Shown here: piece after piece, positions 7,981-49,830 of the stretch | Numbering within the stretch: the first letter of the stretch is position 1 | Layout of the letters: the number at the start of each line of letters is the position of its first letter | DNA from: Hypanus sabinus | Lineage: Eukaryota | Reading direction: 5' to 3' | Length of the DNA stretch: 64,000 nt | Assembly: GCF_030144855.1 (NCBI RefSeq) | Contig: NC_082739.1 | Location: 44,082,001 to 44,146,000, forward strand | Program-made: the position numbers and the translations under genes | Notes under the pieces: generated by a model | Told to the model about the DNA's origin: nothing | Databases searched by the model: none | What the model saw: only the letters and a program-made list of their open reading frames with translations

Positions 7981-7989
7981 TCAAGAAAA

Positions 7990-9035: not shown

Positions 9036-9039
9036 ACTC

Positions 9040-9600: not shown

Positions 9601-9629
9601 ATATTAATTGTAATTAATATGCATACATT

Positions 9630-10095: not shown

Positions 10096-10142
10096 ATTCA
10101 CATTGCAGAAACTGTACTTGTAGAATGACAAAAAAAGTTTAC

Positions 10143-10490: not shown

Positions 10491-10799
10491 CTGATGGGAA
10501 GAAATAAAGCTTGTCATTTTCAGTCAGACTCCAGTTGATAGTTTGATAAAAGTTTACTTTCAACAAAGGTAACTTGGAAAACAAAAACAGAATGCTGAAA
10601 GAAGTCAGCGATTAAGCAATATCTCTGATTGCTTTTTTGTTACATGAAATACATCAAAATACGTTTCCTTTTCAGATTTAGTTCTAAGTTACGCAATGAT
10701 TTAGGATTCAATATTCTGTCTGAGTTTGTTTCAAATGACCAGACTATAGTAAAGGGATTAGAGTGTTGCCACAGTCATCCTTGGCTGGCATTTAGATGG

Positions 10800-11900
10800 T
10801 AGAACATAGAACAGTACAGTATGTTATGGGCCCTTCAGCTCAAGGTGTTGTGCTGACCTATATAAATGTACTCCAAGATCATTCAAAGCCTTTCCTCCTA
10901 CACAACCCATAACCCTCTATTTTTCTTATATCTTTGTACCTAAGAGTCTCTTAAGTGTCCCTTTTGTGTCAAACTCTTCCCCAAACCGCGGCAGAGTGTT
11001 GCAGGCACCCACTATTTCCTGTGTAAAGTTGTAAAGTGCCTTCCTCTGGCATCTCCTCTAAACTTTGTTCCACTCACCTTAAATGCATGTCCTCTCACGT
11101 TGTCCATTGCCACCCTGGGAAAAGAGTGCCAGCTGTCCACTGCCTCTCATAATCTTACACACTTCTATCAAGTGGCCTCTTATCCTCTGTGGCTCGAAAG
11201 AGAAAAGCCCAAATTTGCTCAACATTTCGTCATAAGGCATTCTGTAATCCAGGCAGTATCCTAATAAGTCTACTCTGTTCCCTCCCCAAAGTAACTGGAA
11301 CTGAATGCAATACTCTAAGTGTGGTCTAACCAGAGTTTTTATGGAGTTGCAAAATAACCTCCTGACTCTTGAACTCAGTCGCCCAACTAATGAAGGCCAA
11401 CACACAATATCCATTCCTAATCACCTAATCAACTTGTGCGAATACTTTGAGGGTTCTGTGGACTTAGAACTCAGATCCCTCGGTTTCTCCACGCTGTTAA
11501 GAATTCTGCTACTCGCCTTGTACTCCGCCTTCAAGTTCAATCTTCCAAGGAGTATCACCTTATGCTTTTCCAGAATGAACTCCATTTGCCACTTCTCTGT
11601 TCAGCTCTGCATCCGGTGAATATCCTGTTGTAATCTACAATAACCATCTAAACTATCCACATCACCTCCGACCTCTGTGTCATCTACAAACTTACTAACC
11701 CAGCCCTCCACATTCTCATCCAAGTTATTTATAAGAATCAAAGAACAGGAGCACCAGAATTGATCCTTGCAGGACCCCACAAGTCACCAACTGCCAGGTG
11801 GAATAGTATCCATCTACTACAGTCCCATGCCTTCTACAGGCAAGCCAATTTACATCAAGTACTTTACAACTTGAAATTTTTCACTGTAACATCAAACCTA
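10800..11900 (-). mobile_element. CR1-type LINE 3' part
   Basis: Minus ORF KTLVRPHLEYCIQF...RIRGHLIEVCKIMRG; the reverse-complement tail appears as agaacatagaacagtacag near 10800. Confidence 0.85.
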
Positions 11901-12139
11901 CCTGTAACAGGAGTTGCACTTCTCTCAGGTTCCGAATCTCCCTGAAGTGAATTAAATGCAAAGAAGGTGTAAAACAGATCAAAAATTAGGGGGAAGTTAG
12001 AGGATTAGGAAGCTTTAAAAAAACAACAGAAGGCAACAAAAAAAAGCCACAGGGAAAGAAAAGATGAACTATGAAGCTAAGTTAGCCAATAGTTTCAAAG
12101 AGTTTCAAACCAGAAGTGTTTTCAAATATATAAAAAGTA

Positions 12140-13900
12140 AAAACATTGAAGCAATTTGGATTTCTTTCAGGATACAAAGTTAATCTGTCAAAATCAGCAC
12201 TGATGCTGATTAATACAGATAAAAGTAAGGTGTCTCTCCCTCCCCAGATTAATGTTACAAATGAGGTCCTCCACTTGGGTATTAAAGTTAATATGTCTCT
12301 ATCGTCTGTGGCTAAAACAAATTACTCTTTAATTTTGAAAAAACATAGAAGATATTAATAGATGGCAACACCTGTCAGCATCAGACCCAGCCCATATATC
12401 GGTCATTAAAATGAACATCTTACCCCGCATTAATTTTATCAGCTCAATGATCCCATTTGCATCTCCAGCAGGATATTGGTCAAAACTGGACTCCTTACTA
12501 TGATGCTATGTTTGGAACGGTAACCGACCCAATATAAAGTAGTTAGCTCAACAATTCAAAAAGTCGGATAGGGGATTGGTATGTCCAAATTTTAAACTGT
12601 ATCACTGGGCATTTGTATTAAAAAGTCTTAGCTATTGGATGGAGGAGGATAAAGTTTCATCATGGAAAAATATAGAACGAGAGCTAATAGCACTGATACA
12701 GTTGAAGAACTTTCTCTTTATAGGTACGTCTACCAAAAAATGTGATTTGTATTACAGTCCAATTTTAACCCATATGCTACAAGTGTTTAGAGCAGCAGAA
12801 AAATTCCTAAAATTTAAAGGTGTATGGTGCAAATCATTTTCATTATGGAACAATAATAATTTTCTATTGGGGGGGGGGAACCACTCACTAACAGAACTTG
12901 AGAGGGTAAAGGTATTACTACTCTTCAAGATATTAATGGGGCAAGTACTATCCTTAGCTTTCAAGAACTGGTATCTCAATATAATATTGATAAACACTCT
13001 CTTTTCTTCTACTTTAGAGTAAGTTCAGCTTGTAAAGCCCAAGGGTTCTCTGGGGGTCCGATTTAAAGGACCATCCCATTTTAACTTGGATACAGAGTGC
13101 TCCAAGACAGATAGTGTCATATATCTGTGATAAATTAAACTCCCAGAAATATATGCCATCAGGGATGAAAGCCTGGGATAAGGACATTTCTGAATTGGGA
13201 CAAGACTAAGACTGGGATGCGATTTGGGATAAAGCTGCCGGTGCTTTGAAAAACCCAAATCATCGGTATATACACTTGAAATTTTGTCATAGAGCATATC
13301 TAACACCGAGAATTGGACATCAAATGGGACTGGTTCCTGACCCATATTACTCATTTTGCCCCCATGGAACCGTTGGCTCTTTTATACATGTAGTATGGGA
13401 ATGTCCAGGGGTTTTTGGTTTGTAGGGAAGGTTATCAGTATTCTTACAAAACTAACAAGGGTACAGTTACCAATGGACCCTGCTGTACATCTTCTAAATG
13501 ATGACTCCCACCTTTCCCTTATGGAAAAAAAACACGCAAAATCTGGCTGACAGGCCTGACTGCAGCCAAGAAAATTGTAGTCCAGCGTTGGAAACCTCCC
13601 CATGATATTTCATATACTCACTGGCTTTGGAGCTTTTTGGACATTTCTTACCTGGAATTATCATCAGCAAGAGTAAATGATGCATGACAAACGCAATCTT
13701 AATGTGGACAAATTTGATATCTAACAAAATATCTTCTGTTAAAATAGGAATGCTTTGTCTGTGTACGCACTACTATTCAGTTGGTTGGTGGAGGGGAGAG
13801 GGGTAGGGGGGAGAAGGAGGGGTGAAGAGGGGGAAGGGGTGGAGGGGGTGGAGATGAGGGTTGGAGATGAGACTGGGTTAAACAGTCAAAATGTAATTGG
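12140..13900 (+). mobile_element. 5'-truncated L1-clade LINE (ORF2 RT C-terminus and Cys-rich domain), frameshifted
   Basis: FGFLSGYKVNLSKS, IKMNILPRINFI, PNFKLYHWA, HLKFCHRAYLTP, CPHGT.GSFLHVVWECP, AAKKIVVQRWK; G-rich 3' UTR at 13790-13860. Confidence 0.85.
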
Positions 13901-14699: not shown

Positions 14700-17020
14700 A
14701 TTACACCGTACAACAGAGTATAATGAACTGGAACTGATTAGTGAACTTAAAGTAAAAGAACCCTTAGAGGAAGTCATCATAATATGATCAAATTCACCCT
14801 AAAATTTGAGAAGGAGAAGCAAAAATCAAATCTATCAGGGAATCACAGAGGTATGAAAGAGGAGTTGGCCAGAATTGGTTGGATGCAACACTGGCACCAG
14901 AGCAGCAATGGCTGGAACTTCTGGAAGCAATCTAGAAGGCACAGGATGTATACATTTCAAAGAGGAAGAAGCATTCCAAAGGCAAGATGGTACAATTGTG
15001 GCTGACAAGGGAAGTCAAAGCCCACATAAAAGCCAAAGAGAGAGTATATAATAGAGCAAAAAATAGTGGGAAGTTAGAGGATTGGGAACTTTTTAAAAAC
15101 CAACAGAAGGCAACTAAAAAAGTCATTAAGAAGGTAAAGATGGAATATAAAAGTAAGCTAGCCAATATTAAATAATACCAAAAGTTTCTTCAGATACATG
15201 AAGTGTAAAAGTGAGGTGAAAGTGGATATCAGACCAATGGAAAATGATGCTGGAGGGATAGTAATGGGGTCCAAGGAAATGGTGGATGAACTGAACAGGT
15301 ATTTTGCAACACTGTTCACTGTGGAAGACACTAGCAGTATGGTGGGTGTTCCAGGTGTCAGGGGTCATGAAGTGTGTGAAGTTACCATTGATAGAGAGAA
15401 GTTTCTTGGGAAACTGAAAGGTCTGAAGGTAAATACATCACCTGGACCAGATGGGGTACACTCCAGGGTTCTGAAAGAGGTGACTGAAGAGATTGTGAAG
15501 ACATTAGTAATGATCTTTCAAGAATCACATAGATTGTGGAAGACTGGAAAATTGTAAATGTCACTTGACTCTTCAAGAAGGGAGAGAGGCAGAAGGAAGG
15601 ATACTATAGGCCAGTTAGTCTGACCTTAGTGGTTGGAAAGATGTTGGAGTCATTTGTTAAGGATATGGTTTTAGGGTACTTGGAGGCACATGATAAAATA
15701 GGCTGTAGTCAGCATAGTTTCTTCAAGGGAAAATTTTGCCTGACAAATCTATTGGAATCCTTTGAAGAAATAACAAGCAGGGTAGACAAAGAACTTGGAT
15801 CCTCAGAAGGCCTTTAACAAAGTAACACACATGAGGCTGCTTAACAAGCTACGAGCCAATTGTAGTACAGGAAATATTCTAGCATGAATAACTCAGCAGC
15901 TGATTGGAAGGAGGTAAAGAGTGGGAATAAAGGGAGCCTTTTCTGGTTGACAACTGGTGACTAGTAGTGTTCCACAGGGGTCTGTGTTGGGACCGATTGT
16001 TTTATGTTATATGTCAATGATTTGGATGGCAGAATTGATGGATTTTTTTGCAAAGTTTGCAGATGATTCAAAGATAGGTGGAAGGGCAGGTAGCTTTGAG
16101 GAAGTAGAGAGGCTACAGAAGGACTTAGATGGAGTGGGAGAATGGGCAAAGAAGTGGCAGATAAGATATTGTGTCAGGAAGTGTATGGTCATGCACTTCA
16201 GTAGAAGAAATTAAAGGGGTAGACTATTTTCTAAATGGAGAGAAAATACAAATAACTGAAGTGCAAAGGGACTTGGGAGTCCTTGTGCAGGATTCCCTAA
16301 AGATTAATTTGCAGGTTGAGTCTGTGGTGAGGAAGGCAAATGCAACCTTAACATTCATTTGAAGAGGACTAGAATATAAAAGCAAGGATGTAATTTTGAG
16401 AATTTATAAAGCACTGGTGAGGCTTCAATTAGAGTATTGTGTGAAATTTTGGGCCTCTCATCTTAGAAAGGATGAGCTGAAACTGGAGAAGGTTCAAAGG
16501 AGTTTCACAAAAATGAAGAGCACTTGATGGTTCCGAGTCTGTATTCACTGGAATTCAGAAGAATGATCAATTGCACCTTACCTGTTTGAAATGTGTGTCT
16601 TCATTCCAAATCATCTCCAATTGTTGCATTTTCAATGAAACCTATTGAAAGGTGAAAGGCCTTGATAGAGTGGATATGGAGAGGATGTTTCCTATGGTGG
16701 GAGAGTCTAGGACAGAGGACTCAGCCTCAGAATAGAGGGGTGCCCTTTTAGAATGGAGATGAGAAGGAACTTCTTTAGCCAGAAAGTGGTGAATCTGTGG
16801 ATTGTTTTGCCACAGGCAGCTGTGGAGGCCAAGTATTTATGTGTATTCAGGGAAGAGGTTGATAGATTCTTGATTGGTCAGGGCATGAAGGGATTTGGGG
16901 GGGTGGGCATGGGAAGGCAGAAGACTGTGACTGAGAGGAAAAATGGATCAGACATGATGAAACTGCAGAAAAGACTTGATGTGCCAAATGGCCTAATTCT
17001 GCTCCTATATCTTATGGTCT
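14700..17020 (+). mobile_element. Long degenerate CR1-type LINE (ORF2 middle to 3' end)
   Basis: Chain of ORFs 14784-17190: KSPGPDGVH-like, VPQGSVLGP, KFADDSKIGG, LVRLQLEYC, EMRRNFFSQKVVNLW. Confidence 0.9.
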
Positions 17021-17399
17021 TACAGTCTTATCATCAAGTAACAGTAGGGATTGTCAAAAAGAAAATGCAACAATTGGAGATGATTTGGAATGAAGACACA
17101 CATTTCAAACAGGTAAGGTGCAATTTTGTTTCTCAGAACGCTTGTGACTCTATGAAATTTTTGCCCTCAAGAGCTGTGGAGGTAAAGTAATAGAATTCAT
17201 CAAAAGTGGAGATTGACAGACATTTGAAATACAACAGAACCAAAGCATGTGGGGAGATTATGAAAAGTGATACTAAGGCTAACAATGGTTCAGCCATGAT
17301 CTAATTGAATGACCAGCTGGGCTTGACCCTGATTCATCCTCATCCGAAAAGCTGAAGACAAACTCCTCCCGCACCAATGTGCAGAGATCCTGATCTTTC

Positions 17400-17940: not shown

Positions 17941-18572
17941 TATACATCATTTTTAATTCAAACCTGATGAAGCTGATCTTTAACAGTGATCCTCACAATG
18001 TTCTCTTCCTCCCTCTACTTTGCAATCTATTTGCTGTTGTTTGCTCAGAAGTCCATATTCTCAATCTTGCTAAAAATGCTGTAAGTTGCTAGAAAATCTC
18101 AGTAGATCAGTTCATTATAGTTCACTTCAGCCTATAGTACGTGGCTCAGGCCAGTATTGAGACTTTCACTGCCTAGAACCATCCCTCTAAGGCCCCCTTT
18201 ATCTCTCTACCAAATGCTTATCCCTTGATCCCTCTACTGAACCAAGAATTCACTATTCCCTATCATGAATTTACTATCTGCTACTACCTAACAGAATCTT
18301 TGCTGTACCCTCTTCAATGCATTCACATCCCTTCTATTTAATTTCAATTTGATCCTTTTATCCATTGATGTAACTATAATCTTAGTATCTTTTGCTCTGT
18401 TGAAATATAATCATGGAAACTTACAAGCCTTCTGGTAGACATGGCTACATCTAACCACTTCCTTGCTCTTAACTCAAAACTGCAATTTCCTTTTAAAATT
18501 TACTGTAGAGCCTGCTTCTACCACCCTTTCATCTATTCCAGAAAACATTCTGTAATTTTCAGTTCCCTCTAC

Positions 18573-19507
18573 TGTTATGAGTGATGAACAGACCTGATGG
18601 ACAATGGGGTGAAGAGTTAACCAATCCCCCTCCCCGAGAAACACGAACTATTACTGTTGCTATGCTGACCATGGGAAAGAGAAACGAAAAACAAGCAAGA
18701 ACATTTGTGACCGATAAGAGAGAGGGGGAAATTGCTGTTTAACTGTATTGTGACTCCTTTTTTGAATTATTTACTGTTTCGCTGCAAGGACTATAGTTTG
18801 CTCATAAACATTCCTCAGTGGACTGAAGGAGTGGCCTGATTTGATGTACACAGTCATTCAGGAGTGATGGATAGCTGAGTCCCCATGAGTAGGAATAAAA
18901 AGACAGGTCTGGAGAGACACCCTCCAGACATGCCAGTGGACACTGATTGAGTGATGGAACCCACAAGAAAGGTGGGGGCTTCGGAGACCGAACCAGGAGG
19001 TCGTTCAGTAAAGCTCATAGTGTTAAAGCAGGGCCGGTGGGGACTTGTGTGTGTGTCCACTCATGCCAGAGTGATGAGTCCACCACAGAAGAATGGTCTA
19101 GCAGAAGGACGGAGAGGTCATAACTGAATGACCACACCGATACGACGGGTTAAGGAAGCAAAGGAAGGTTTGCCTGACTGTAGCTGTTACATCTCGCTCA
19201 CTCGCTCTCTCTCTCTCTCTCCAACGATTACAATAACTACATCAGCACTTACGAACTGAACTGAACTTTATACTTTTCTATGACAATTTATTTACCCCTA
19301 GACATCGATAGAGCTTGTTTATTATTGATTATTATTATTCCTACACTTTTAGGTTTATTACTGCTAACTTGTTTTATATGTATATTTGCATTACTGACAT
19401 GGTTTTTGCTTATTTTTATTAATAAACACCTTTAGTTTGGTACCACCAGACTCCAACAGATTCTTCTTTCTCTGCTGGTTAGACACCCAGTTACGGGGTA
19501 CGTAACA
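18573..19507 (+). mobile_element. Solo LTR (935 bp) with 4-bp TSD CTAC
   Basis: Termini TGTTAT...GTAACA, CTAC immediately on both sides (18569-18572 and 19508-19511), AATAAA near 19421. Confidence 0.85.
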
Positions 19508-20659
19508 CTACACAGCACCAGTGGCTTGGGTTCAGTCCCATCCTCTGATGCTGTCTCAACAACTGGTATTGCCGTTTGCTCCCTCATTTCAAAATAAAAC
19601 ACGAGTTGGAAGATAGAAATAAAACAAATGTGCAAATTCTAGAAATCCGAAATGAAAACAGAATATGCTGGAAGAATGCCAGGCAGCATTGATGGAAAAA
19701 GAAACCATCTATGTTTAATCACAACCTCTTTCCCACTTCTTCTGAAGAGTTACAGACCTCTGCACAGATGCAACTCATCCGGTTGAGCTTTTCGAAAGTA
19801 TTGTTTTTGCATTTGTGTGAATTGGTTGGTTATAGAGTGACTTTAAATTGCTCCTGTGTACAGATGAGTGGTAGAATCAGGGAATGGAGAGCAATAAGTT
19901 AATGTGAAGGAAAAAAGATGATTATATTAAGATCAGAGTAAAGATATATGCTTGAATGTCAGTGTGGACTTGAGGAATGAAGAGCCAGTTTCTATGCTGT
20001 ATCACTCAAGTTGCTAAAATCCTCATTCAGTCATAACTCTGACTTTAGTCAATTCTCTGAAATTTTTTCCTCTCAGGTCAGGAAAGTAACCATCTCTCCT
20101 TACTTATTGAGATAACATCTATTAACACCTTTCATACTTCTGACAACTCAGTTCAATCATGCTTCAACTTTCTCCACACTGAACTCCATCTATCTAGTTT
20201 ATCCAAATGGCACTGAATCCATTCCTCTATTACACGTCACAACCTTGGGTTGTCGGCAGAGTATTCTGCGGGCTCTGAGTTTTTGTATTTTCTGAGTTTT
20301 CTATGTCATGCTTCAGATTTTTTTTAATGTGTTACGGTTAGATAACACATTCTCTAGTTTACATTTAAGTTGCAATTGTCCTTGAATACTTCCATTAATT
20401 TTCCTTGAGACTTTGCAAGTGTCCAATTAAGTAACCCTGGACTTTGTTCTCTTATCAGAATGGTTACTTGTAAGTTTGTCCAGAGTCTGGGGTTTAAATT
20501 AGCTGGGCATGGATTCCTCTGTGCCCTGGTGTGTATTTTAAAGGGTGGTGCTAACCTCTCATTTGCTCGGTTGTCCTGCTCCTTACCAAGTGAAGTTCTG
20601 GCAGAGTTACCAAAGATCTTTTAAGGGCCATTGTTGGGGGAGGGAAGGGGGAGGGGGAG

Positions 20660-24889: not shown

Positions 24890-25220
24890 TGCTGTAATTC
24901 AGCGGAAGGAAGTGATGGTACTTGGGTCTGTACCTTGGTGTGGTGACAATGCTTAAGGCAATTTTCTCACTCAAAGGTCAATTGTATTGTCCATTAAAAC
25001 AGTGAACATTTAAGATGTATACAGGTTTGTTATACTTTATAACAAAAAAAAATCACATTTACTTACAGCAGTTTCATTGCAGTGCAGTGGTTGCGGAAAA
25101 AATCTTCCTGACGTTGCTTTTGTTCGTCGATAATCGACCACTTCAAAACCCACAGAGGAAATGTTTTGTGAGAACAGACTAAGGTCCATTTAGTTTGGCT
25201 TCTCCACTCCTGACCATGTA
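24890..25220 (-). promoter_or_regulatory. Candidate promoter / 5'-UTR exon region
   Basis: Local CpG cluster, ETS-type GGAA cores (GGAAGT at ~24908, CAGGAAG at ~25105, GAGGAA at ~25155), RUNX-like TGTGGGT, donor gct|gtaagt at 25067 and acceptor ttacag|C at 24891. Confidence 0.3.
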
Positions 25221-26112: not shown

Positions 26113-28069
26113 TTGCAGCAATACCTGTAAAATGAATGTACGTGCATTAATGAAGATGGACAACATTAGAAACTGACTGAAAATATAGCATTCCTTCATA
26201 GCCTGAGAGAACCAAGGCTCTTTGTATGTATAAGATCTTAAGAGGAGTGACAGGAGAAGCCGGTGGGGGTGGGGTTTGGGTTTGGGGGGAGATATATTTA
26301 ACCTCCTGTGGATTTACTAACCGACACGCCTTCAGTATTCACAATAATGTCGTAAAATAAGTTCATTAAACTTTAAGACTCACGCTCTCAATATTATTCT
26401 TAAAAAATTATTTGCATGATTTGTCTTTTGCACATTGGTTCTTTATCAGTCTCTAAGAAATGTATCTTTATTTTTCCTGTGAATTTCTGCAAGAAAATGA
26501 ATCTCAAAGTAGTATTGTATATCATGACATGCAATGTGTACTGTGATAATATACTTTAACTTTTGACTTTGAAGAAGATTTTAGAAATACTGACTTGCAG
26601 GAATACTCGGTTCATCCAGGACATGGACTTAACTTTGTTCAGTAATAAAGAGCATACAGAGAAGCTTTTAAAGTTTATATTTATCCAAATAAAATGTACC
26701 CAATTGTCAAGATGTAATTCCCTTGAACTGGCTTTCCAACCAAGATTTTCTGTAGTAAAGTGTACATAACTTTAATGACTAAAATTGAGCTTAGTCACCC
26801 AGGAATATAGTTTACCATTATAGCTTTGTTGTATCAAAGCTTTTATTGTCTAGATAATCTAGATATAGATAGGAAAAAGAAGAAGAGCTGAAGGACTCTT
26901 TGCTCAGACCAGTGGTGAAGCTTGCTTTCAGATTAAAGTGCATGCTGCAGTTTCTATTATTATTATTATTTTTAAAGTTTAAAGTTTTTTAAAGTTTGGC
27001 TTCTCTTACTGTCAAATCCAATAATCTGCAGAATCCATCTTTCCTCATTCTCTTCCATTTTCCTAAATGTGGGCCAAATTTTGCTAAATGTCAGCCTCTG
27101 CTCAATTCCTCTGACAATGCAATGATTCCTTCAAGTGTCTCTGGGGGTTAGGTTTCTTGTCCAACATCATAGGTAAACCCTTGATTTCTCTAGTTGGATG
27201 AGGCATTGAGCATTGTACAAATAGGAATGGATCCTGCAGGTTTGTCAATGATACCCACATCTTGTGTGTGAAATAAGAAAGAACCCTATTCTGACAGTCT
27301 GAGAGTGTCAAAACCTTTATTTCCTGCTTGATTTTGAGACTTCCCTGGCAGCCAAGTTATTTTGATTTAGCATTTTTACTGGGGACATACAAGTATAGCC
27401 AATTTGTGTTCGGCAATGTTCCAGTGAGACAGAGTCGAATTTCTCTTTCAGCTTTTTCCAGTTGAGAAATATTATTAATGAGAATGTTGCATGAAAACAA
27501 GCTGGAAAAAACAAGATCAACAATAAAAACTAATTACTTGTGTAATAGGAGGGTGTGCTGGCTTATGTTAGTCTTAAAGTGATTAATACAGCATGGATAC
27601 AGGCCCTTGAGCCCAATGAGTCTATGCTCTCGAGAGTGCCAACTGTGCTAGTCCAAAGTTCTGTTTTAACTTTTACCCAAATTCTTCTCTTTGTTAAATA
27701 CTGACACAAAGTATTCAACTTCTTGTTCTGACTTCAAATGAGAATCCCTCTATTATTCCTGAGTGGACTCAGTGGACTGAGTCTCCTTAGTTATCCTATT
27801 TACTGTAATAGAAATTTAAAATATCTTGGAATTCTATTTGATCCTGCTTAACAAGGGTGTTTCATGGCCCCTTCTGGACATCCTAATCACCCATTTGAGC
27901 ACTTTCCTGCTATCTATATATTCCACAAGGGTCCAGTCTAATTTTAACTTCCTAAACCTTGCGTGTCATCCCTTTTTCTTTCTGACTAAATTTAAGGGCT
28001 CACAGGCCATCCAAGGTTCCCTTGTCTTACAATTCTTGTCCTTATTCCTTGCCAGAACATGCCAACTCA

Positions 28070-29690
28070 GAACTCTGAATCAGAATCAGGCTTATTATCA
28101 CCAGCATGTGTCATGAAATTTGTTAACCTAGCAGCAATTACAATACATAATTTAGAAGCAAAAAATAATAAATAAGTAAAACAGTATATTTATATTGAAT
28201 AGATTAAAATCATGCAAAACCCAGAAATAATATATTTTTAAAAAGTGTTCAAGGGTTCAATGTCCACTTAGGAATCAGATGGCGGAGGGGAAGAAGCTGT
28301 TCCTGAATCACTGAGTGTGTGCCTTCAGGCTCCTGTACCTCCTCCCTGATGGCGGAGGGGAAGAAGCTGTTCCTGAATCGCTGAGTGTGTGTCTTCAGGC
28401 TCCTGTACCTCCTCCCTGATGTCAGAGGGGAAGAAGCTGTTCCTGAATCACTGAGTGTGTGCCTTCAGGCTTCTGTACCTCCTACCTCATGGTAACAGTG
28501 AGAAAAGGACATGCCCTCGGTGCTGGAGGTCCTTAATAAAGGACGCTACCTTTCTGAGACACCGCTCCCTAAAGATGTTCTGGGTACTTTGTAGGCTAGT
28601 ACCTAAGATGGACTGACTAAATTTACAACCCTCTGCAGCTTCTTTCAGTCCTGTGCAGTAGCCCTTCCATACCAGACAGTGATGCAGCCTGTCAGAATGC
28701 TCCCCACAGTACAACTATAGAAGTCTTTGAGTGTATTTGTTGACATACCAAATCTCTTCAAACTCCTAATGAAGTATTTGTCGCTACCTTGCCTGCTTTA
28801 TAACTGCATCAATATGTTGGGACCAGGTTAGCTCCTCAGAGATCTTGACACCCAGGAACTTGAAGCTGCTCACTCTCTCCACTTCTGATCCCTCTATGAG
28901 GATTGGCATGTGTTCCTTCATCCCACCCTTCCTGAAGTCTACAATCAGCTCTTTCGTCTTACTGACAATGAGTGCCAGGTTGTTGCTGCAACATCACTCC
29001 ACTAGTTGGTATATCTCACTCCTGTACTCCATTTCGTCACCACCTGAGTTTCTACCAACAATGGCTGTATCATCAGCAAATTTATAGATGGTATTTTGAG
29101 CTATGCCTAGCCACACAGTCATGAGTATAGAGAGAGTAGAGCAGAGGGCTAAGCACACACCCCTGAGGTGCCCCGGGGTTGATCGTCAGCAAGGAGGCAA
29201 TATTATCACCAATCTGCACGCATTGTGGTCTTCTGGTTAGGAAGTTGAGGATACAATTACAGAGAGAGATACAGAGGCTCTGGTTCTGTAAGTTCTCAAT
29301 CAGGATTGTGGGAATGATGGTGTTAACTGCTGAGTTATAGTCAATTAACAGCATCCTTACATAGGTGTTTGTGTTGTCCAAGTGGTCGAAAGCCTTGTGA
29401 AGAGCCATTGGGATTGCATCTGCCATTGACCTATTGTGGCGATAGGCAAACTGCAATAGGTCCAGGTCCTTGCTGAGGCAGGAGTTCATTCTAGTCATGA
29501 CCAACCTCTCAAAGCATTTCATCACTGTAGGTGTGAGTGCTACCGGGCGATGATCATTAAGGAAGCTCACATTATTCTTCTTAGACACTGGTATAATTGT
29601 TGCCTTTTGGAAGCATGTGGGAACTTCTGTTCATAGCAGTGAAAGGTTGAAAATGTCCTTGAGTAATTCCTGCCAGTTGGTTGGCACAGG
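28070..29690 (-). mobile_element. Rex-Babar-type LINE, RT and 3' end
   Basis: Minus ORF 29082..29588 (LNDHRPVALTPTVMKCFERLV...GAPQGCVLSPLLYSLYTHDC); tail reads agaatctgaatcagaatcagg on the plus strand. Confidence 0.92.
28278..28487. repeat. Three tandem copies of a 70-bp unit inside the Rex-Babar 3' end
   Basis: gatggcggaggggaagaagctgttcctgaatc...cctccct starts at 28278, 28348 and 28418. Confidence 0.92.
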
Positions 29691-34538: not shown

Positions 34539-37500
34539 CACTGGTGGTAAAGAGAAATGCAATGTTGAAAAAAAACTTGCATGAAATCTCAGCTAAAGTT
34601 TATCAAAAGGCATGTGGGAGACTCTGAAGTCAGCTGGAAAAAGGTTCTATGGTCTGATGAAACCAAAATTGAGCTTTTTGGCCATCAGACTAAATGCTTT
34701 GATTGGTATAAGCCAAACACTGCATATCATCAAAACACCCGATCCCTCCCGTGAAGCCTGGTGATGACTGCATCATGCTGTGGGGATGCTTCACTGCAGC
34801 AGGCCAAGGAAAGCTTGTGAAGGTAGAGGGTAAAATGAATACAGCAAAATACAGGGAAATCCTGGAGGAAAACCTGATGCAGTCTGCAAGAGAACTACAA
34901 CTTTGTAGGAGACTTGTTTTTCCAGCGAGACAATGACCTCAAGCATAAAGCCAAAGCTACACAGGAATGGCTTAAAAACAACAATAAAGTTAATGTCGTG
35001 GAGTGGCCATATCAAAGTTCAGCCCTCAAGCCGATTGAGAATTTGTGGCTGGACTTGAAAAGGGCTGCTCGCTCACAATTCCCATGCAATCTGACAGAGC
35101 CTGAGCAGTTTTGTAAGGAAGAATGGGGAAAATTTGCAGTGTTCAGATGTGCAAAGCTGATAGAGACCTAACCACACAGACTCAAGGCTATAACTGCTGC
35201 CAAAGGTGCATCTACTAAATACTGACTTGAAGGGGATGAATACTTGTGCAATCAATTATTTTGTGTTTTGGATTTGTAACTAATTTGGATCACTTTGTAG
35301 AGATCAGTTTTCAATCGATACAAAAGAATCTTTTTCTGTGGATCAGTGTAAAAAAAAGCCAAATTAAATCCACTGTGATTCAATGTTGTAAAACAATAAA
35401 ACATGAAAACTTTCAAGGGGGTGGGGATGAAGACTTTTTATAAGCACTGTAGGGAGGGAGGTAGGAATAGGTGTAGAAGAACTGAGTTTATTGCGGAGCT
35501 CTGCTGAGATACCAACCAGGCATTGTGGCGCAGAAATAAAATCACCCGGCACCTATAACAGCTGATTATATACCAACTCCTCTGCGGAAGACTGCATGTC
35601 CTCTTTTGGAGCTGTTCTGAGCTCCAGCAGGACGATTCTGCCAAAACTCCTCCATCAAGGAGGCCCTTGGAGCAGCCTTTAAGGAATGGTGAAACCACTC
35701 ACACCATCCATTGGATTGTGGATGATACACTGTGGTGTGATGCAATTTAATGCTGAGGCTCTGGAGGTCTGACATGATTTGGGGATATGGTCGGAAGAAC
35801 TGAGTGACCCAGGTGTTGATGAACACCCGAGCCACATCCACAGCCATTGTCCATGCTAGAAGGACAACCTCTGATGCGCTCTACCATGGTAAGTAGATCC
35901 ATGAATCTTTGGGAGGGGAAAGAGGACCAACAAGGTCCACATTAAAGTGCTCAAACCATCGCTCAGGCACCTCAAAAGATGTCAATGGTGCCCGAAGGTG
36001 ACGGTTGATTTTCCCTCACTGACACACTACACAGGTTGCACTCCATTCTCGTACGACCTCTCTAAGGCCATGCCACACAAACTTTAAAGCAAACATTTTC
36101 TGTGACGTCTTCCCACCTGGATGCGAGAGGCCATAAATGGAGTTACAAACAATATATCTGCAGTTTGAAGGCACTATAAGGCAAGGGTGACATGTTGAGA
36201 CATTGCACAGGAGAGTAGCTCCTGTATCCCAGAACTTGATGTCAGCCAACTGCAAGCCCATGACTGCCATCTTGTAAGCCTGGACCTCAGGCTTGGCAGC
36301 TTAGTCAGCTTCCACGTTGGCATTGTCAACACTCATGTGTATGGTATCAATGGCGGGCCACAGGTGGCAATCAGGTGTGGCTGTTGTGCAGTCCAAGAGT
36401 CGAATACTTGGTGCATGGGGGTTTTGTAGTCAACAAACAATGTGAAATGCTACCCTCCAGTAGAAAATGAAAATGGCAGATGGTCAGATAGAGTCCAAGA
36501 AGCTCACGGTCAGACGTACTGTACTTCCTCTTGTTGGGGTTTGGGGGCTGAGCTGCTGCCTGAAGAAGTTGGTTGGAGACTATCATGTCTGCATACAATT
36601 AGGGCAATGCCTTTAAGGGCATAATTTCAGCAGCTTGCAGAAAGAAACAGTGATAAAGATTCACCATACTTAAACAATCTGGCAGTGCTTTGGTAGTGCG
36701 GGGCAGTGGAAAATCATTAATAGCGATGACTTTTGACGGCAGGGCACCTTCTGCAGAGATGCATTGGCCAAGAAAGTGAATAGCAGACAACCTGAACTGT
36801 CATCTGTCACCCATTATATTACCCTACAATGGCAATGACCCTTACTTTTGCCCCCATTCTTGCATTTCTGGTACTCTGTTCATGTCTTCCACAGTGAAGA
36901 ATACTTTTAATGAAAGTTGAAGATATCCCAAAGGCAACTACTGCTAATGTGCAAAGTGCTTTCAGGTAGCTTTGTTTGAATGCAATTGCAACTTAATTTG
37001 TGTTGACCCATGTAGCTATTTAGAATAACAAGTATTTTTTTTCCCCAAGATAGTAGGATAGCAGGAGGAAGTCATCTAAACAAAGAATTGCAGTGTGGTT
37101 AAAAATAATAGTGATGTGAAAGATATGATATAAATTCTACTCAGGCCATCAAAGATAACTGTGTCTTGTACTACTGAATAGAAAAATTTTAAGTAATTTT
37201 TGCACTAAGAAAAGTAATTGAAATTACTGGGATCACATTCGATTTGCTTTGTGGCTTGTTTACAGAACTGTGACAGAAAATTAAAACCTGCACTGAGATC
37301 ACTTGTTCTAGGCTGTTTAAGTGGAACATCTGCTTGTTTCCTTCAGGCAAATTGTGGCCACAATGCATCCAACTCTTTATATAGTTTGCTTTTGACATGG
37401 TTACTGTGGTGACAGCAACAAAACAAATATCCAGTGGCCTGGCAGAAGAAATGATGTTGAACAGTGCAAAATACGGTTTTCATAGTATTAAGTTGTTTCA

Positions 37501-41289: not shown

Positions 41290-41465
41290 AATGGAACATA
41301 GAATAAATATATGGGTTGTTTTCTAGCAACAGAGTCTGACAGGAAACCTTTTCGAAGTTTATAAGGTTATGAGAGATATAGAAAAGTAGACAACGAGTAT
41401 ATTTTCCCAGGGTCCAAATGTACACATAATAGTAAAGAGCATGCATTAAGGTGAGAGGTGGTAAG
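41290..41465 (+). mobile_element. CR1 3' fragment, left of the LTR insertion; resumes at 46611-46800
   Basis: EVYKVMRDIEKVD...FPRVQM...RGHALKVRG-type sequence, continuing after 46611 to the tail gttctatgttctatag. Confidence 0.7.
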
Positions 41466-44400
41466 TGATGCACCATCAATAACTCTCGGAGACGTGAGGT
41501 GAGAGATAGGCTTTTATTAGCTGGAAGAAAGCACTGTCAGCAGCAAGAGACCATCACACAGCAGTGCTTCCAATCGCCTTTATACAGGGGTCAGTGGGAG
41601 GAGACACAGGAGCAGTCAGTGGGGGGGGGGGTGTCCAGACAGGTATATGTAGTTCACCATCAATCACCTTTATACCAGGGTCAGTGGGAGGAGCCACAGG
41701 AGCAGTCAGTGGGGAGGGGGGGGGGTGTCCAGACAGGTATATGTAGTTCACCATCAATCACCTTTATACCGGGGTCAGTGGGAGGAGACACAGGAGCAGT
41801 CAGTGGGGGTGGGGGTGTCCATACAGGTATATGTAGTTCACCATCAATCACCTTTATACCGGGGTCAGTGGGAGGAGACACAGGAGCAGTCAGTGGGGGG
41901 GGGGGGTGTCCAGACAGGTATATGTAGTTCACCATCAATCACCTTTATACCGGGGTCAGTGGGAGGAGACACAGGAGCAGTCAGTGGGGGGGGGGGGTGT
42001 CCAGACAGGTATATGTAGTTCACCATCAATCACCTTTATACCGGGGTCAGTGGGGGGGGGGGGTGTCCATACAGGTATATGTAGTTCACCATCAATCACC
42101 TTTATACCGGGGTCAGTGGGGGGGGGGGAGGGGCGTGTCCAGACAGGTATACGTAGTTCACCATCAATCACCTTTATACCGGGGTCAGTGGGGGGGGGGA
42201 GGGGCGTGTCCAGACAGGTATACGTAGTTCACCATCAATCACCTTTATACCGGGGTCAGTGGGAGGAGACACAGGAGCAGTCAGTGGGGGGGGGTGTCCA
42301 GACAGGTATATGTAGTTCACCATCAATCACCTTTATACCGGGGTCAGTGGGGAGGGGGGTGTCCAGACAGGTATATGTAGTTCACCATCAATCACCTTTA
42401 TACCGGGGTCAGTGGGGAGGGGGGTGTCCAGACAGGTATATGTAGTTCACCATCAATCACCTTTATACCGGGGTCAGTGGGAGGGGGGTGTCCAGACAGG
42501 TATATGTAGTTCACCATCAATCACCTTTATACCGGGGTCAGTGGGAGGAGCCACAGGAGCAGTCAGTGGGGGGGGGGGGGGTGTCCAGACAGGTATATGT
42601 AGTTCACCATCAATCACCTTTATACCAGGGTCAGTGGGGGGGGGGGGGGTGTCCAGACAGGTATATGTAGTTCACCATCAATCACCTTTATACCGGGGTC
42701 AGTGGGGGGGGGGGGTGTCCAGACAGGTATATGTAGTTCACCATCAATCACCTTTATACCGGGGTCAGTGGGGGGGGGGGGGTGTCCAGACAGGTATATG
42801 TAGTTCACCATCAATCACCTTTATACAGGGGTCAGTGGGAGGAGCCACAGGAGCAGTCAGTGGGGAGTTGGGGGGGGGGTGTCCAGACAGGTCTATGTAG
42901 TTCACCATCAATCACCTTTATACCAGGGTCAGTGGGGGGGGGGGGGTGTCCAGACAGGTATATGTAGTTCACCATCAATCACCTTTATACCGGGGTCAGT
43001 GGGGGGGGGGGGTGTCCAGACAGGTATATGTAGTTCACCATCAATCACCTTTATACCGGGGTCAGTGGGGGGGGGGGGGTGTCCAGACAGGTATATGTCG
43101 TTCACCATCAATCACCTTTATACCGGGGTCAGTGGGAGGAGACACAGGAGCAGTCAGTGGGGGGGGGGGGGGGGTGTCCAGACAGGTATATGTAGTTCAC
43201 CATCAATCACCTTTATACCGGGGTCAGTGGGAGGAGACACAGGAGCAGTCAGTGGGGGGGGGGGGGTGTCCAGACAGGTATATGTAGTTCACCATCAATC
43301 ACCTTTATACCGGGGTCAGTGGGGGGGGGGGGTGTCCAGACAGGTATATGTAGTTCACCATCAATCACCTTTATACCGGGGTCAGTGGGAGGAGCCACAG
43401 GAGCAGTCAGTGGGGGGGGGGGGGGTGTCCAGACAGGTATATGTACTTCACCATCAATCACCTTTATACCGGGGTCAGTGGGGGGGGGGTGTCCAGACAG
43501 GTATATGTAGTTCACCATCAATCACCTTTATACCGGGGTCAGTGGGAGGAGACACAGGAGCATTCAGTGGGGGGGGGGGGTGTCCATACAGGTATATGTA
43601 CTTCACCATCAATCACCTTTATACCGGGGTCAGTGGGAGGAGACACAGGAGCATTCAGTGGTGGGGGGGGGGTGTCCAGACAGGTATATGTAGTTCACCA
43701 TCAATCACCTTTATACCGGGGTCAGTGGGAGGAGACACAGGAGCATTCAGTGGGGGGGGGGGTGTCCATACAGGTATATGTACTTCACCATCAATCACCT
43801 TTATACCGGGGTCAGTGGGAGGAGCCACAGGAACAGTCAGTGGGGGAGGGGGGGGGTGTCCAGACAGGTATATGTAGTTCACCATCAATCACCTTTATAC
43901 CGGGGTCAGTGGGAGGAGCCACAGGAACAGTCAGTGGGGGAGGGGGGGGGTGTCCAGACAGGTATATGTAGTTCACCATCAATCACCTTTATACAGGGGT
44001 CAGTGGGAGGAGACACAGGAGCAGACAGTGGGGGGGGGGGTGTCCAGACAGGTATATGTCGTTCACCATCAATCACCTTTATACCGGGGTCAGTGGGAGG
44101 AGACACAGGAGCAGTCAGTGTGGGGGGGGGGGGGGGGGTGTCCAGACAGGTATATGTACTTCACCATCAATCACCTTTATACAGGGGTCAGTGGGAGGAG
44201 ACACAGGAGCAGTCAGTGGGGGGGGGGGGGGGTGTCCAGACAGGTATACGTAGTTCACCATCAATCACCTTTATACCGGGGTCAGTGGGGGGGGGGGGTG
44301 TCCAGACAGGTATATGTAGTTCACCACCAATCACCTTTATACCGGGGTCAGTGGGAGGAGAGACAGGGGCAGTCAGTGGGAGGGGGGTGTCCAGACAGGT

Positions 44401-46610
44401 ATATGTAGTTCACCATCAATCACCTTTATACCGGGGACTGTGGGAGGAGACACAGGAGCAGTCAGTGGGATGGGGGGGGGGTGTCCAGACAGGTATATGT
44501 AGTTCACCATCAATCACCTTTATACCGGGGTCAGTGGGGGGGGGGGGTGTCCAGACAGGTATATGTAGTTCACCATCAATCACCTTTATACCGGGGTCAG
44601 TGGGGGGGGGGGGGTGTCCAGACAGGTATATGTAGTTCACCATCAATCACCTTTATACCGGGGTCAGTGGGGGGGGGGGGGTGTCCAGACAGGTATATGT
44701 AGTTCACCATCAATCACCTTTATACAGGGGTCAGTGGGAGGAGCCACAGGAGCAGTCAGTGGGGAGTTGGGGGGGGGGTGTCCAGACAGGTCTATGTAGT
44801 TCACCATCAATCACCTTTATACCAGGGTCAGTGGGGGGGGGGGGGTGTCCAGACAGGTATATGTAGTTCACCATCAATCACCTTTATACCGGGGTCAGTG
44901 GGGGGGGGGGGTGTCCAGACAGGTATATGTAGTTCACCATCAATCACCTTTATACCGGGGTCAGTGGGGGGGGGGGGTGTCCAGACAGGTATATGTCGTT
45001 CACCATCAATCACCTTTATACCGGGGTCAGTGGGAGGAGACACAGGAGCAGTCAGTGGGGGGGGGGGGGGGGTGTCCAGACAGGTATATGTAGTTCACCA
45101 TCAATCACCTTTATACCGGGGTCAGTGGGAGGAGACACAGGAGCAGTCAGTGGGGGGGGGGGGGTGTCCAGACAGGTATATGTAGTTCACCATCAATCAC
45201 CTTTATACCGGGGTCAGTGGGGGGGGGGGGTGTCCAGACAGGTATATGTAGTTCACCATCAATCACCTTTATACCGGGGTCAGTGGGAGGAGCCACAGGA
45301 GCAGTCAGTGGGGGGGGGGGGGGTGTCCAGACAGGTATATGTACTTCACCATCAATCACCTTTATACCGGGGTCAGTGGGGGGGGGGTGTCCAGACAGGT
45401 ATATGTAGTTCACCATCAATCACCTTTATACCGGGGTCAGTGGGAGGAGACACAGGAGCATTCAGTGGGGGGGGGGGGGTGTCCATACAGGTATATGTAC
45501 TTCACCATCAATCACCTTTATACCGGGGTCAGTGGGAGGAGACACAGGAGCATTCAGTGGTGGGGGGGGGGTGTCCAGACAGGTATATGTAGTTCACCAT
45601 CAATCACCTTTATACCGGGGTCAGTGGGAGGAGACACAGGAGCATTCAGTGGGGGGGGGGTGTCCATACAGGTATATGTACTTCACCATCAATCACCTTT
45701 ATACCGGGGTCAGTGGGAGGAGCCACAGGAACAGTCAGTGGGGGAGGGGGGGGGTGTCCAGACAGGTATATGTAGTTCACCATCAATCACCTTTATACCG
45801 GGGTCAGTGGGAGGAGCCACAGGAACAGTCAGTGGGGGAGGGGGGGGGTGTCCAGACAGGTATATGTAGTTCACCATCAATCACCTTTATACAGGGGTCA
45901 GTGGGAGGAGACACAGGAGCAGACAGTGGGGGGGGGGGGTGTCCAGACAGGTATATGTCGTTCACCATCAATCACCTTTATACCGGGGTCAGTGGGAGGA
46001 GACACAGGAGCAGTCAGTGTGGGGGGGGGGGGGGGGGTGTCCAGACAGGTATATGTACTTCACCATCAATCACCTTTATACAGGGGTCAGTGGGAGGAGA
46101 CACAGGAGCAGTCAGTGGGGGGGGGGGGGGTGTCCAGACAGGTATACGTAGTTCACCATCAATCACCTTTATACCGGGGTCAGTGGGGGGGGGGGGTGTC
46201 CAGACAGGTATATGTAGTTCACCACCAATCACCTTTATACCGGGGTCAGTGGGAGGAGAGACAGGGGCAGTCAGTGGGAGGGGGGTGTCCAGACAGGTAT
46301 ATGTAGTTCACCATCAATCACCTTTATACCGGGGACTGTGGGAGGAGACACAGGAGCAGTCAGTGGGATGGGGGGGGGGTGTCCAGACAGGTATATGTAG
46401 TTCACCATCAATCACCTTTATACCGGGGTCAGTGGGGGGGGGGGGTGTCCAGACAGGTATATGTAGTTCACCATCAATCACCTTTATACCGGGGTCAGTG
46501 GGGGGGGGGGGGGTGTCCAGACAGGTATATGTAGTTCACCATCAATCACCTTTATACCGGGGTCAGTGGGGGGGGGGGGGTGTCCAGACAGGTATATGTC
46601 GTTCACCACA
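41466..46610 (-). mobile_element. Solo LTR with 5-bp TSD GTAAG whose interior is expanded into a minisatellite
   Basis: Termini TGATGCACC...TTCACCACA, GTAAG at 41461-41465 and 46611-46615. TTTTATT at ~41509 (AATAAA on the minus strand) gives the orientation. Confidence 0.85.
41575..46608. repeat. G-rich minisatellite/VNTR of roughly 65 units in two classes (~65 bp and ~90 bp)
   Basis: Unit atcaatcacctttataccggggtcagt[gggaggagacacaggagcagtcagt]G(9-17)tgtccagacaggtatatgtagttcacc; the bracketed block is optional. Unit count is estimated from length. Confidence 0.97.
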
Positions 46611-47564
46611 GTAAGTTTTTTCTCATTCACAGTAAGGGATGGGTGCCTAAAATGTCCTTCTAAGTGTGGTATTCGAGGTAAATCCTTAGAGGTGTTTACA
46701 AGGCACATGAAAATGTAATGAAGGTAGGATATAGACACCGTGTAGGCAGAAGGGATTTGTTTAGTCAAATGTTGAGCTACTGTTCTATGTTCTATAGAAG
46801 TAAAATTTAGGTCAAGTTCAGATCATTCATGACATTATTGTATGGCAAAACAGGAAGGACAGGCTGAGTAGCCTATGCCTGTTCCCGTTCCCCTCTTGTG
46901 ATGCCTTCAGGATTTAATCCAACAGGAATTGGCTGCAACCCCACCTGTACAAACCCGAGTAGCAGGTGCGTGCAAAATATTGAGAATGGAATGACCCTGG
47001 AAAGTGAATACACTGTATTCAATAACCTGACTATAAACCAATAGCGCTAGGAATTCCCAGCAAGTCAGGCAGCACTGCGGGAGAAAAACAGATTTAACAT
47101 TTCCCATTCTCAGCGTTAGTTTTTTGTACAGGAACTGCCTCACAGCAGCTATATAATAAAGCAGGGGATGATTAAAATACATTAGAAATAAATGAAATGT
47201 AAGACAGGTATTAATTGCTGCTCTTAAACAAAATGTAAAAGTGACATTTATATTTTTTTGCATTGTTCTAGGTTGTGGATAGCTATGACAGAACATAAAA
47301 TAGTAAAGCTTAGAAATAGGTACTTCAGTCCATTGTGCCTATAGCTACTATAATGTCACATTCAATGAATCCTCTTTGCCTGCATATGATCCATAACCCC
47401 ACATTTCCTTATGTTCATGTACCTGTCTAAATGCCTCCTACCTATCACTTAAATCTGCCTCCACCAACCCCCTGGCAGAAAACTTCAGGCCCTTATCAGC
47501 AATATAAATTAATTGAATAATAATATTAAATATCATACTAAGAATCTCAATAAAACCAGGATAA

Positions 47565-48584: not shown

Positions 48585-49385
48585 CAGGGGTGGGCAAACT
48601 TTTTGACTTGAGGGCCACAAAGGGTTCTAAAATTTGACAGGGGGGCCGGACCAGGAGCAGATGGACGGAGTGTTTTGGTAATACACCTCATAAGAGAAAA
48701 TAAAATATCATGGGATATGTAGAAAACATGTGCTTTAATTTCAATTGAAAATGAACAAATGCATTACAACAAAATATCTGTCTTTGAAGTCCCATGGTAT
48801 TTAGCTATTTATTGAAATGACTTTTAAAACACTGAAAATTAAATGAATAAAATATAGCTTTTTTTAATAGTAACAGTTATTATTTTAAAGCACTGAAAAT
48901 TCTGTTATCCTTCAAGATATTATCATCATCACTCTCCTCCTGACTGTCTTTATTTCAAAAACGGTAGGAGATGCAGGTCTACTTGTCCTGCTCCTTCTTA
49001 TTCAATTGTCCCCGATGCCAAAACTCAACAACGACCCGCACAATGACAGAACAGTGAGAGCACGCCAATATACGGAGCTCTGTGCTCGCAAATCCCCGCA
49101 GGCTATCTCCCTTAGCCGGAACGCTGGCTAATTGTGAGCTGGTTCGGATGTGCCAGGAAATGGGTCGCCACAAGGTCACAAAGTAAAGCGCAAATGTGGA
49201 GTAATACGCTGCACCTCAACAAAGGTCAATGTATATAGAGTGCGTCATCTATTGGGAAGACGCCAGAATTGCGGGTAAAAAACGTTAACAAGGTTTATTA
49301 ATATAATTTCATCAAGTTCTGCGGGCCGGATTAAAAAGCTTAACGGGCCGCATATGGCCCGCGGGCCGTAGTTTGCCCATGCCTG
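48585..49385. mobile_element. Non-autonomous hAT (Charlie-like) DNA transposon, 801 bp, 8-bp TSD AGCTAGAC
   Basis: TIRs CAGGGGTGGGCAAACT / AGTTTGCCCATGCCTG; perfect AGCTAGAC at 48577-48584 and 49386-49393; subterminal GGCCCGC repeats. Confidence 0.93.
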
Positions 49386-49444
49386 AGCTAGACTCAAGGC
49401 TATGTCTGTATTCTCCAGCACTAGCCACCTGCCTGCTGCTTTTC

Positions 49445-49830
49445 AGAACATAAGAAATAGGAGCAGGAGTAGGCCATCTGGCCTGTCGAGTCTGCTCCAC
49501 CATTCAATAAGATCATGGCTGATCTGACCATGGACTCATCTCCACCTATCTGCTTTTTTGCCATAACGCTTAATTCCCCTACTATGCAAGAATCTATCCA
49601 ACCTTGTCTTAAATATATTTTCTAGCCTCCACTGCTTCATTGGGCAGAGAATTTCACAGATTCACTGCTCTCTGGGAAAAGCAGTTCCTCCTCATTTCCA
49701 TCCTAAATCTACTCCCCCCGAATCTTGTGGCTAAAATTCTAGTCTCACCTACCAGAGGAAACAACTTCTCTGCCTCTATCCGTTTCTTAATTTCATGTTT
49801 CTGTAAGATCTTCCCCCCCCATCCTTCTGA
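49445..49830 (-). mobile_element. CR1 3' end
   Basis: Minus ORF FPLVGETRI...RFRMEMRRNCFSQRAVNL; tail reads agaacataagaaataggagcagg on the plus strand. Confidence 0.85.

Follow-up and report, generated by a model that had tools for sequence, protein, structure and literature searches.

A 62-unit minisatellite inside a long terminal repeat-like insertion of Hypanus sabinus

The stretch of DNA analysed here, hereafter the window, comprises 64,000 nt of Hypanus sabinus (NCBI RefSeq assembly GCF_030144855.1, contig NC_082739.1, positions 44,082,001 to 44,146,000 of the forward strand). It is vertebrate DNA, rich in fragments of long interspersed nuclear elements (LINEs), with an immunoglobulin (Ig)-domain gene at its left end. 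One of the LINE fragments is interrupted by an element of 5145 nt (41466-46610) that begins with TG and finishes with CA. We interpret this element as a short, minus-strand long terminal repeat (LTR), one part of which has been multiplied into a tandem array.

The element, its host site and its units

GTAAG is found at both borders of the element (41461-41465 and 46611-46615). A 6-nt direct repeat (GTAAGT) is an alternative reading, but TG...CA termini result from the 5-nt reading only; GTAAG followed by TG occurs four times in the remaining ~59 kb of the window, both strands counted. The flanks are the two collinear parts of a CR1/L2-like LINE 3' fragment on the plus strand, at 41312-41460 (76% identity over 107 nt to 4295-4397) and 46616-46757. 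Left and right flank were each aligned on their own to seven other LINE fragments in the window, with 100 shuffles per score. The fragment at 4200-4700 matched both flanks collinearly, the left one over its positions 50-198 and the right one over 232-379, with scores of 117 and 58 that none of the 100 shuffles reached. It was the only one of the seven to match both clearly: a second fragment gave a good match to the left flank and matched the right one only at its microsatellite tail (equalled by 1 of 100 shuffles), a third matched the left flank alone, and the other four matched neither. In the paralogous copy GTAAG is present once, at the homologous position (4425-4429). The pentamer therefore predates the insertion, and the target-site duplication (TSD) is a duplication of pre-existing sequence. 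Immediately to the left of the TSD, some 25 nt of the host LINE are gone. As the host is ~24% diverged from its paralogue, the array, whose units show a mean pairwise difference of 2.3%, must be much younger than the LINE. Past TG/CA the element has no terminal inverted repeat (9 of 30 terminal positions match, with a leading run of two), and its identification as a DNA transposon or a miniature inverted-repeat transposable element was rejected for this reason.

Split at the junction between repeats, the element contains 105 unique nt (41466-41570) followed by 62 units (41571-46610), each of which carries a plus-strand G-run of 5-17 nt. Thirty-five units are long (88-98 nt, about 90) and 27 are short (64-72 nt, about 66). 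Head-to-tail units of ~10-100 nt, extending over kilobases with variant units interspersed, are what characterises a minisatellite. A short unit is a long unit minus a 25-nt block that sits between two copies of GTCAGTGGG. The block is present once in 35 of the 62 units, absent from 27 and present twice in none, which points to non-reciprocal deletion and not to crossing over between the short GTCAGTGGG repeats. Collapsing the G-runs leaves 24 unit types. In a set of 39 units (units 39-61 dropped) there are 17 variant sites, and the 2.3% difference given above was obtained on this set, over 56 fixed positions. Six of the 17 sites are A/C (G/T) transversions, as many as there are transitions; this is high for a vertebrate, on small numbers, and might reflect damage in G-rich DNA. 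A GC-box-like GGGCGTG is found only in units 7-8 (42093-42235), before the tail, the other 60 units having a plain or A/T-interrupted G-run. A coding role of the array was rejected: its open frames are G/P-rich repeats that shift with G-run length and lack relatives. Rfam gave no match to a structured RNA in the window, and neither the unique part nor two units that were folded did better than shuffles (z 0.08, 2.10 and 2.04, respectively).

The two strands of the element differ in their signals. On the minus strand every one of the 62 units contains a single TATAAA, that of unit 1 (41579-41584) adjoining the unique part, and the unique part itself contains a single polyadenylation signal, AATAAA (41513-41518), 66 nt past the last TATA and 53 nt from the end of the element. 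The plus strand of the element has neither TATAAA nor A(A/T)TAAA. The order of TATAAA and AATAAA indicates that the element reads on the minus strand. Dinucleotide shuffles never produced such an ordered pair (0 of 5000 and 0 of 40000); against the fairer baseline of real 195-nt tiles elsewhere in the window, 8 of 300 had one. Thus the features expected of an LTR are found together: TG...CA termini, a 4-6-bp TSD of pre-existing sequence, and a TATA box followed by a poly(A) signal on the same strand. One long unit plus the unique part amounts to ~195 nt. To judge from its motifs, the element has the layout (U3)62-R-U5 on the minus strand. The multiplied part is the 5' portion of the LTR, which begins with the first bases and extends slightly beyond the TATA box, and the single-copy part (41466-41570), with the sole AATAAA, would be R and U5. 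The absence of internal sequence and the matching TSD would fit a solo LTR; yet the unit junction contains 3'-end sequence, as a fused LTR dimer would.

The LTR most likely derives from a Gypsy retrotransposon. A short LTR with a 5-bp TSD, as found here, is typical, though not exclusive, of Gypsy elements of the Mag lineage, whose LTRs measure 145-304 nt and whose TSD is 5 bp in five of six complete rows considered from the published table (PMC3286476). Those are mosquito elements, and the likeness is one of length and TSD. In batoid genomes, Gypsy/DIRS elements account for 2.5-3.7% and form the bulk of the LTR elements, retroviral LTRs making up 0.15-0.63%, and the main LINE group is L2/CR1/Rex (manta/devil ray preprint, bioRxiv 10.64898/2026.10.27.761883).

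Much of this had been proposed in an earlier note on the same DNA. Its array of ~5 kb inside an LTR-like element with intact termini, the TG...CA ends and the perfect GTAAG TSD within a CR1 were all confirmed, to which the single GTAAG of the paralogous LINE can now be added. Its derivation of a ~65-bp unit from a ~90-bp unit by deletion was likewise right, the missing block being the 25 nt between the GTCAGTGGG copies. The stated number of about 65 units is replaced by 62, of which 23 come from one duplication. The unit had been taken for the distal ~90 bp of the LTR. Its origin from the LTR itself stands, but its orientation has to be reversed: the element lies on the minus strand, the supposed LTR end is its 5' start, and the unit is a U3 with its TATA box. 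The description as retroviral-type was not borne out; ~195 nt and a 5-bp TSD fit Mag-lineage Gypsy elements, and batoid LTRs are mostly Gypsy/DIRS. As a whole, the earlier interpretation keeps its insertion into a CR1-like LINE with a TSD, its array grown from the insertion's own part, its microhomology (below) and its 25-nt deletion, and loses its orientation, its count and the support for its class.

Origin and growth of the array

On the plus strand the unit junction reads CACCATCAAT in 59 of 61 cases and CACCACCAAT in the other two, which go back to one event that was duplicated. Outside the array, the majority junction 10-mer occurs once only, at 41471-41480 beside the left end of the element, that is, near the 3' end of the minus-strand LTR. 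For comparison, we simulated all simple tandem-duplication junctions within 41466-41658 and scored a match to a third site when it was 10 nt or longer and included no fewer than 4 nt from either side of the join. Of 14186 junctions lacking an insert, 51 gave such a match, as did 113 of the 56744 in which one base had been inserted (0.2-0.4%). Read in the sense of the LTR, the junction consists of TATA, ATTG (common with the 3' end) and TGGTG (common to the 3' end and the 5' start). The three-site microhomology that had been claimed for the birth of the array is supported, in the form of a 10-nt match to the opposite end of the LTR, and it favours an LTR-LTR dimer or a double template switch.

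The best explanation, which we hold to be likely, is that a short LTR, probably of Gypsy origin, gave rise to a two-copy founder through homologies built into its own sequence and then grew by nested duplication, probably without a selected effect. An old CR1-like LINE would first have received an LTR of ~195 nt in minus-strand orientation. Two short homologies inside this LTR would then have produced a founder of the form U3-junction-U3-R-U5. The first, ATTG, would have linked a point shortly after the TATA box with one close to the LTR 3' end, and the second, TGGTG, the 3' end with the 5' start. By one route, a precursor with two LTRs, either a full-length element or an LTR dimer in head-to-tail order, would have undergone two deletions, one taking out R-U5 of the upstream LTR and the other fusing its end to the start of the next. 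A two-deletion model of this kind has been put forward for the LTR-derived maize repeat CRM1TR (PMC3648361). By the other route, a single repair event in a solo LTR would have involved two template switches. The junction match is a matter of observation, from which we infer the birth; either route would account for it. The two-deletion route would make the element a collapsed LTR pair and not a classical solo LTR, which the earlier note had assumed, and it fits the junction at least as well.

The outermost units bear on this founder. Compared with unit 4 as reference, unit 1 differs at the junction-side head only (2 sites) and the terminal unit 62 at the tail only (2 sites). Three of these four edge alleles reappear in internal units, and one is fixed in all 61 other units. 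This is the pattern that exchange from a diverged two-copy founder predicts, and a long pause after a single duplication would produce the same. Since unit 62 is of the short type, no more than its final few dozen bases have to represent the original end.

From two copies that had come to differ at a few sites, unequal exchange, conversion and slippage would then have built up nested duplications of one, two, about four and finally 23 units, and the short unit would be the product of a non-reciprocal deletion between the two GTCAGTGGG copies. Older, diverged duplications of two units (26/28) and of about four units (13-16/17-20) are still recognisable and indicate that real turnover occurred in the array. 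The latest step is a repetition of 1.9 kb. Units 15-38 equal units 38-61, all 24 pairs being identical after G-run collapse, with a period of 1898-1899 nt. The first copy covers units 15-37 (42679-44576) and the second units 38-60 (44577-46474), with identity continuing through unit 61. No substitution separates the copies over 1774 collapsed bases; 7 of 51 G-runs differ, by one base each and in both directions. The duplication is either a very recent event or an assembly error. The second option, in which the real array would have ~39 units (3.2 kb) and the remaining 23 would stem from the assembly, is in our judgement rather unlikely. The lack of substitutions speaks for it, as do the one-base G-run differences, which are typical of long-read consensus error; a very recent sister-chromatid exchange would leave the identical pattern, and the older two-unit and four-unit duplications show that the process is real at this locus. 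Moreover, an array of 5 kb is shorter than typical long reads, which would count against the error. Only the length of the array is affected by this choice, and none of the models of its birth depends on it.

Long G-runs able to form G-quadruplexes (G4) probably keep the array unstable. A 25-nt window with a G4Hunter score of at least 1.5 exists in all 62 units, and such windows make up 24% of the array vs 0.8% elsewhere. Canonical four-tract G4 motifs were detected in 22 of 27 short units vs 5 of 35 long ones (14 of 18 vs 3 of 21 without the duplicated block), with nine motifs in the other 58.9 kb. They are commoner in short units because the deletion puts a G4 tract beside the long G-run. 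A precedent is the human minisatellite CEB1, whose behaviour in yeast is G4-dependent (PMC3486850).

Several observations do not sit easily with this history. Neither a full-length unit of ~187 nt nor internal sequence has left a remnant, and the dimer stage is not directly visible. In units 34 and 57, which represent one event, the junction is a clean one-step join with a single shared base. Adjacent units are no more similar than distant ones (0.022 at both lag 1 and lag 20), and the G4 contrast is descriptive, a lead only, as the units have a common origin and an assembly is least reliable in the lengths of its G-runs. The TATA box reads TATAAAG and was missed by the stricter pattern TATAWAW. 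Above all, blastn with the unique part and unit 1 retrieved no unexpanded copy of the LTR in the array-masked window; the best match (26242-26274, 33 nt, 82%, E-value 3e-4) falls in a G-rich patch and was not accepted as one. A translated word search with a 64-residue frame found no copy of the family, and phmmer with a 152-residue frame retrieved none among 1.84 billion proteins at E <= 0.001, both weak tests for LTRs, which are non-coding. An exact 28-nt pattern had no match in prokaryote genome contigs, an unlikely place that would be reached through host contamination. As no unexpanded copy was found, the family, true length, U3/R/U5 borders and solo status of the LTR rest on one copy. Similar short LTRs are presumably present in ray assemblies.

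A birth in one step, in which the U3 of a solo LTR was duplicated by slippage or end joining at a 1-nt homology, appears improbable to us. The junction of units 34 and 57 would be the original one, an early transition would have given rise to the majority junction, and the match to the third site would be a coincidence. Only a single rearrangement is required, birth at short repeats is the standard minisatellite model (PMC6947457), and in units 34 and 57 the terminal sequence and the unit-1 site do meet directly, sharing a single base. What this reading has to accept is a third-site match of 10/10, as rare as the simulation indicates. The junction of units 34 and 57 may be original, or it may have been converted from the terminal unit; the second private allele of that unit also reappears, in units 20 and 31.

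Still more doubtful is an inherited repeat, by which the LTR subfamily already had at least two U3 units at insertion and the locus is the long tail of a family-wide variable number tandem repeat (VNTR). The founder copies were already diverged, and family-wide cases exist: the U3 of LTR12 has 5-17 tandem repeats (PMC11853044), and LTR10A/F have a VNTR of 28-30 bp (PMC466953). The unit described here, unlike an internal enhancer block, takes in the LTR terminus and the TATA box, and a 5' LTR with many start sites should make transposition more difficult.

The neighbouring immunoglobulin gene and the rest of the window

The Ig-superfamily gene (347-13735, minus strand) has a V-C1-C2-transmembrane organisation and is conserved from stingray to sawshark. 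Its V-set exon (10144-10490; Pfam V-set, E-value 5.8e-10) is 49% identical to the sawshark protein P0002, with no significant longer homologue. The C1-set exon (4750-5076; Pfam C1-set, E-value 4e-13) is 95% identical to the Hemitrygon akajei protein P0001 and 61% identical to a sawshark protein. An I/C2-type Ig exon (1675-2001) and a transmembrane exon (347-442) follow. The best candidate for the leader exon, which would encode a signal peptide, lies at 13652-13685; it is ATG-initiated and hydrophobic, with a phase-1 donor that fits the V exon. Of the 63 open phase-1 donors that precede the V exon, it shares the top score with one lying 30 nt on in the same frame. The leader presumably resembles that of NKp30. 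In the public stingray model P0001 the V exon is missing and the start lies in repeat-derived sequence, with the first 58 residues mapping to repeat or intronic DNA; neither of the two C1 matches, P0001 and the sawshark model, includes the leader exon proposed here. Relatives bear the automatic names 'syg-2-like' and 'sialoadhesin-like', and weak matches include antibody light chains, variable new antigen receptors (VNARs) and PD-1/CTLA4-type clusters. Judged from the V-C1 layout, an immune role is plausible.

An acceptor upstream of the candidate leader exon suggests that a 5' untranslated region (UTR) exon may exist. A possible one ends at a GTAAGT donor (25067-25200, start approximate, minus strand), 16.4 kb from the element, without homologue or transcript support. 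As a coding leader this exon (at 25077) was rejected, its phase-2 donor misfitting the phase-1 leader and V exons with no convincing bridging exon. The immune receptor that the earlier note had placed ~16 kb away is a real Ig gene, but the distance is doubtful: the ATG of the best leader is 27.8 kb from the element, and the donor near 25067, at 16.4 kb, is probably the source of the earlier figure.

The LTR lies upstream of this gene, on the same strand and pointing towards it, with a GTAAGT donor at 40966, about 500 nt downstream of the element. The earlier note had suggested a hypervariable regulatory VNTR. A functional VNTR of this kind, whose copy number would set the level of expression and whose U3 array would enhance the gene, silence it or supply an alternative promoter, could be combined with any model of birth. 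In human LTR10, motif number correlates with H3K27ac and FOSL1 signal (PMC466953), and an ERV9 LTR with 14 U3 repeats enhances globin genes (PMC11853044). Nevertheless, we regard such a function as unlikely. The best ATG is far off, with many repeat fragments in between, and GGGCGTG remains in only two of the 62 units. CpG observed/expected is 0.18 in the array vs 0.23 elsewhere, so that there is no island. For LTR10 itself, the authors state that an effect of VNTR length on genes was not shown (PMC466953). All 62 TATA boxes face one poly(A) signal, and transcripts from upstream units should end within the element. Since this signal lies past every box, any effect on the Ig gene would be that of a long-range enhancer or of silencing. 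Probably the array has no effect that is selected.

Just as improbable, and broader in scope, is a family pre-wired by its own homologies (past the TATA box, at the 3' end and at the 5' start), in which the same junction would have formed independently at many loci to give G4-driven U3 promoter arrays of variable number, with, here, array length tuning an immune-type Ig receptor. If it were true, birth, unit shortening and growth could be compared across replicate insertions, each start being marked by a TSD. That the element is not an LTR at all, but another short mobile element or a satellite insertion ending in TG...CA by chance, is hardly credible, as the missing family copies, the missing internal region and the empty Rfam search are outweighed by a verified 5-bp TSD, TG...CA ends without inverted repeats, the ordered TATA and poly(A) signals and the lack of an A-tail.

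Other features of the window lie outside the array. A second tandem expansion internal to a repeat, 3.1 copies of a 70-nt segment, was detected at 28278-28492, with a short GATGG direct repeat at the unit edges; its paralogue near 8690-8830 is a single shorter copy. A perfect 65-nt inverted repeat (100%; 16569-16633 and 17061-17125) encloses ~430 nt that include a LINE 3' fragment, and looks like an inversion or a staggered-break duplication. At 35500-36500, on the minus strand, there is a decayed Gypsy-type RNase H/integrase remnant (Integrase_H2C2, E-value 1.4e-6; the RNase H likeness is by eye), adjoined by a DDE transposase fragment (34878-35171). No link between the integrase remnant (35.6-36.3 kb) and the LTR of the array was detectable in the window. 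A stretch of ~950 nt (18560-19510), AATAAA-rich and with TG/CA-type ends, is by eye a possible LTR-like insertion. The top CpG density outside the array is found at 48800-49500 (observed/expected up to 0.97 in 300-nt windows).

Comparison with known tandem repeats

The closest human parallels are subfamilies of LTRs with internal repeats. In LTR10A/F, as here, an array inside an LTR insertion multiplies regulatory motifs, with up to 33 AP1 motifs in the reference and predicted tumour expansions of thousands of bases (PMC466953). The LTR10 unit of 28-30 bp is internal, subfamily-wide and polymorphic, whereas the present unit of 64-98 nt is a whole U3 with terminus and TATA box. LTR12/ERV9 also has tandem repeats in U3, and its solo LTRs lie near genes (PMC11853044). 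However, these are 5-17 copies of a ~41-nt enhancer block before a single promoter, family-wide and with enhancer activity shown, against 62 copies with a TATA box each in Hypanus sabinus.

Larger repeats have also been traced to LTRs. Maize CRM1TR and CRM4TR derive from Gypsy LTRs, and their junction is explained by two successive short-homology deletions in a precursor with two LTRs, followed by conversion or unequal exchange (PMC3648361), like the two-deletion route proposed above. Their monomers of 0.7-1.4 kb comprise LTR and UTR and form large (peri)centromeric arrays, whereas here units of <100 nt remain within one TSD. Further LTR-derived satellites are Ctenomys RPCS, Monopterus MALREP and potato Sobo (cited in PMC3648361, PMC6947457 and PMC9659126). 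RPCS resembles a retroviral U3 with TATA and CCAAT boxes, and MALREP is listed as derived from a fish Gypsy LTR. All three are described as satellite DNA families. The mouse minisatellites Ms6-hm and Hm-2 (Kelly 1994) resemble the present array in being single-locus minisatellites grown inside LTRs; human minisatellites with repeat-derived flanks were described by Armour 1989 (both cited in PMC6947457 and PMC9659126), and reviews count thousands of human minisatellites derived from transposable elements (PMC6947457, PMC9659126, PMC12628747). Tandem repeats born from LTRs are thus already well known in humans, rodents and plants. Minisatellite MS32 sits inside an LTR as well, and the units of Ms6-hm and Hm-2 are much shorter than ours and consist of an internal motif, not a promoter-bearing U3. 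For sharks and rays, no such array was described in the titles and abstract beginnings that were searched, most subscription journals lying outside the search.

As a rule, how a tandem repeat was born has to be deduced from a partial resemblance to a transposon. At this locus the ends, TSD, host site, unrepeated remainder and founder alleles survive within 5 kb, and events can be followed in their order almost one by one, which makes the locus a good teaching and test case for satellite birth in cartilaginous fish. Its significance would be larger if the same junction recurred throughout the family or if array length altered the expression of the neighbouring gene. Two things set it apart from the systems compared: its unit comprises the whole promoter-bearing U3 together with the terminus, and its entire history is contained inside one TSD.

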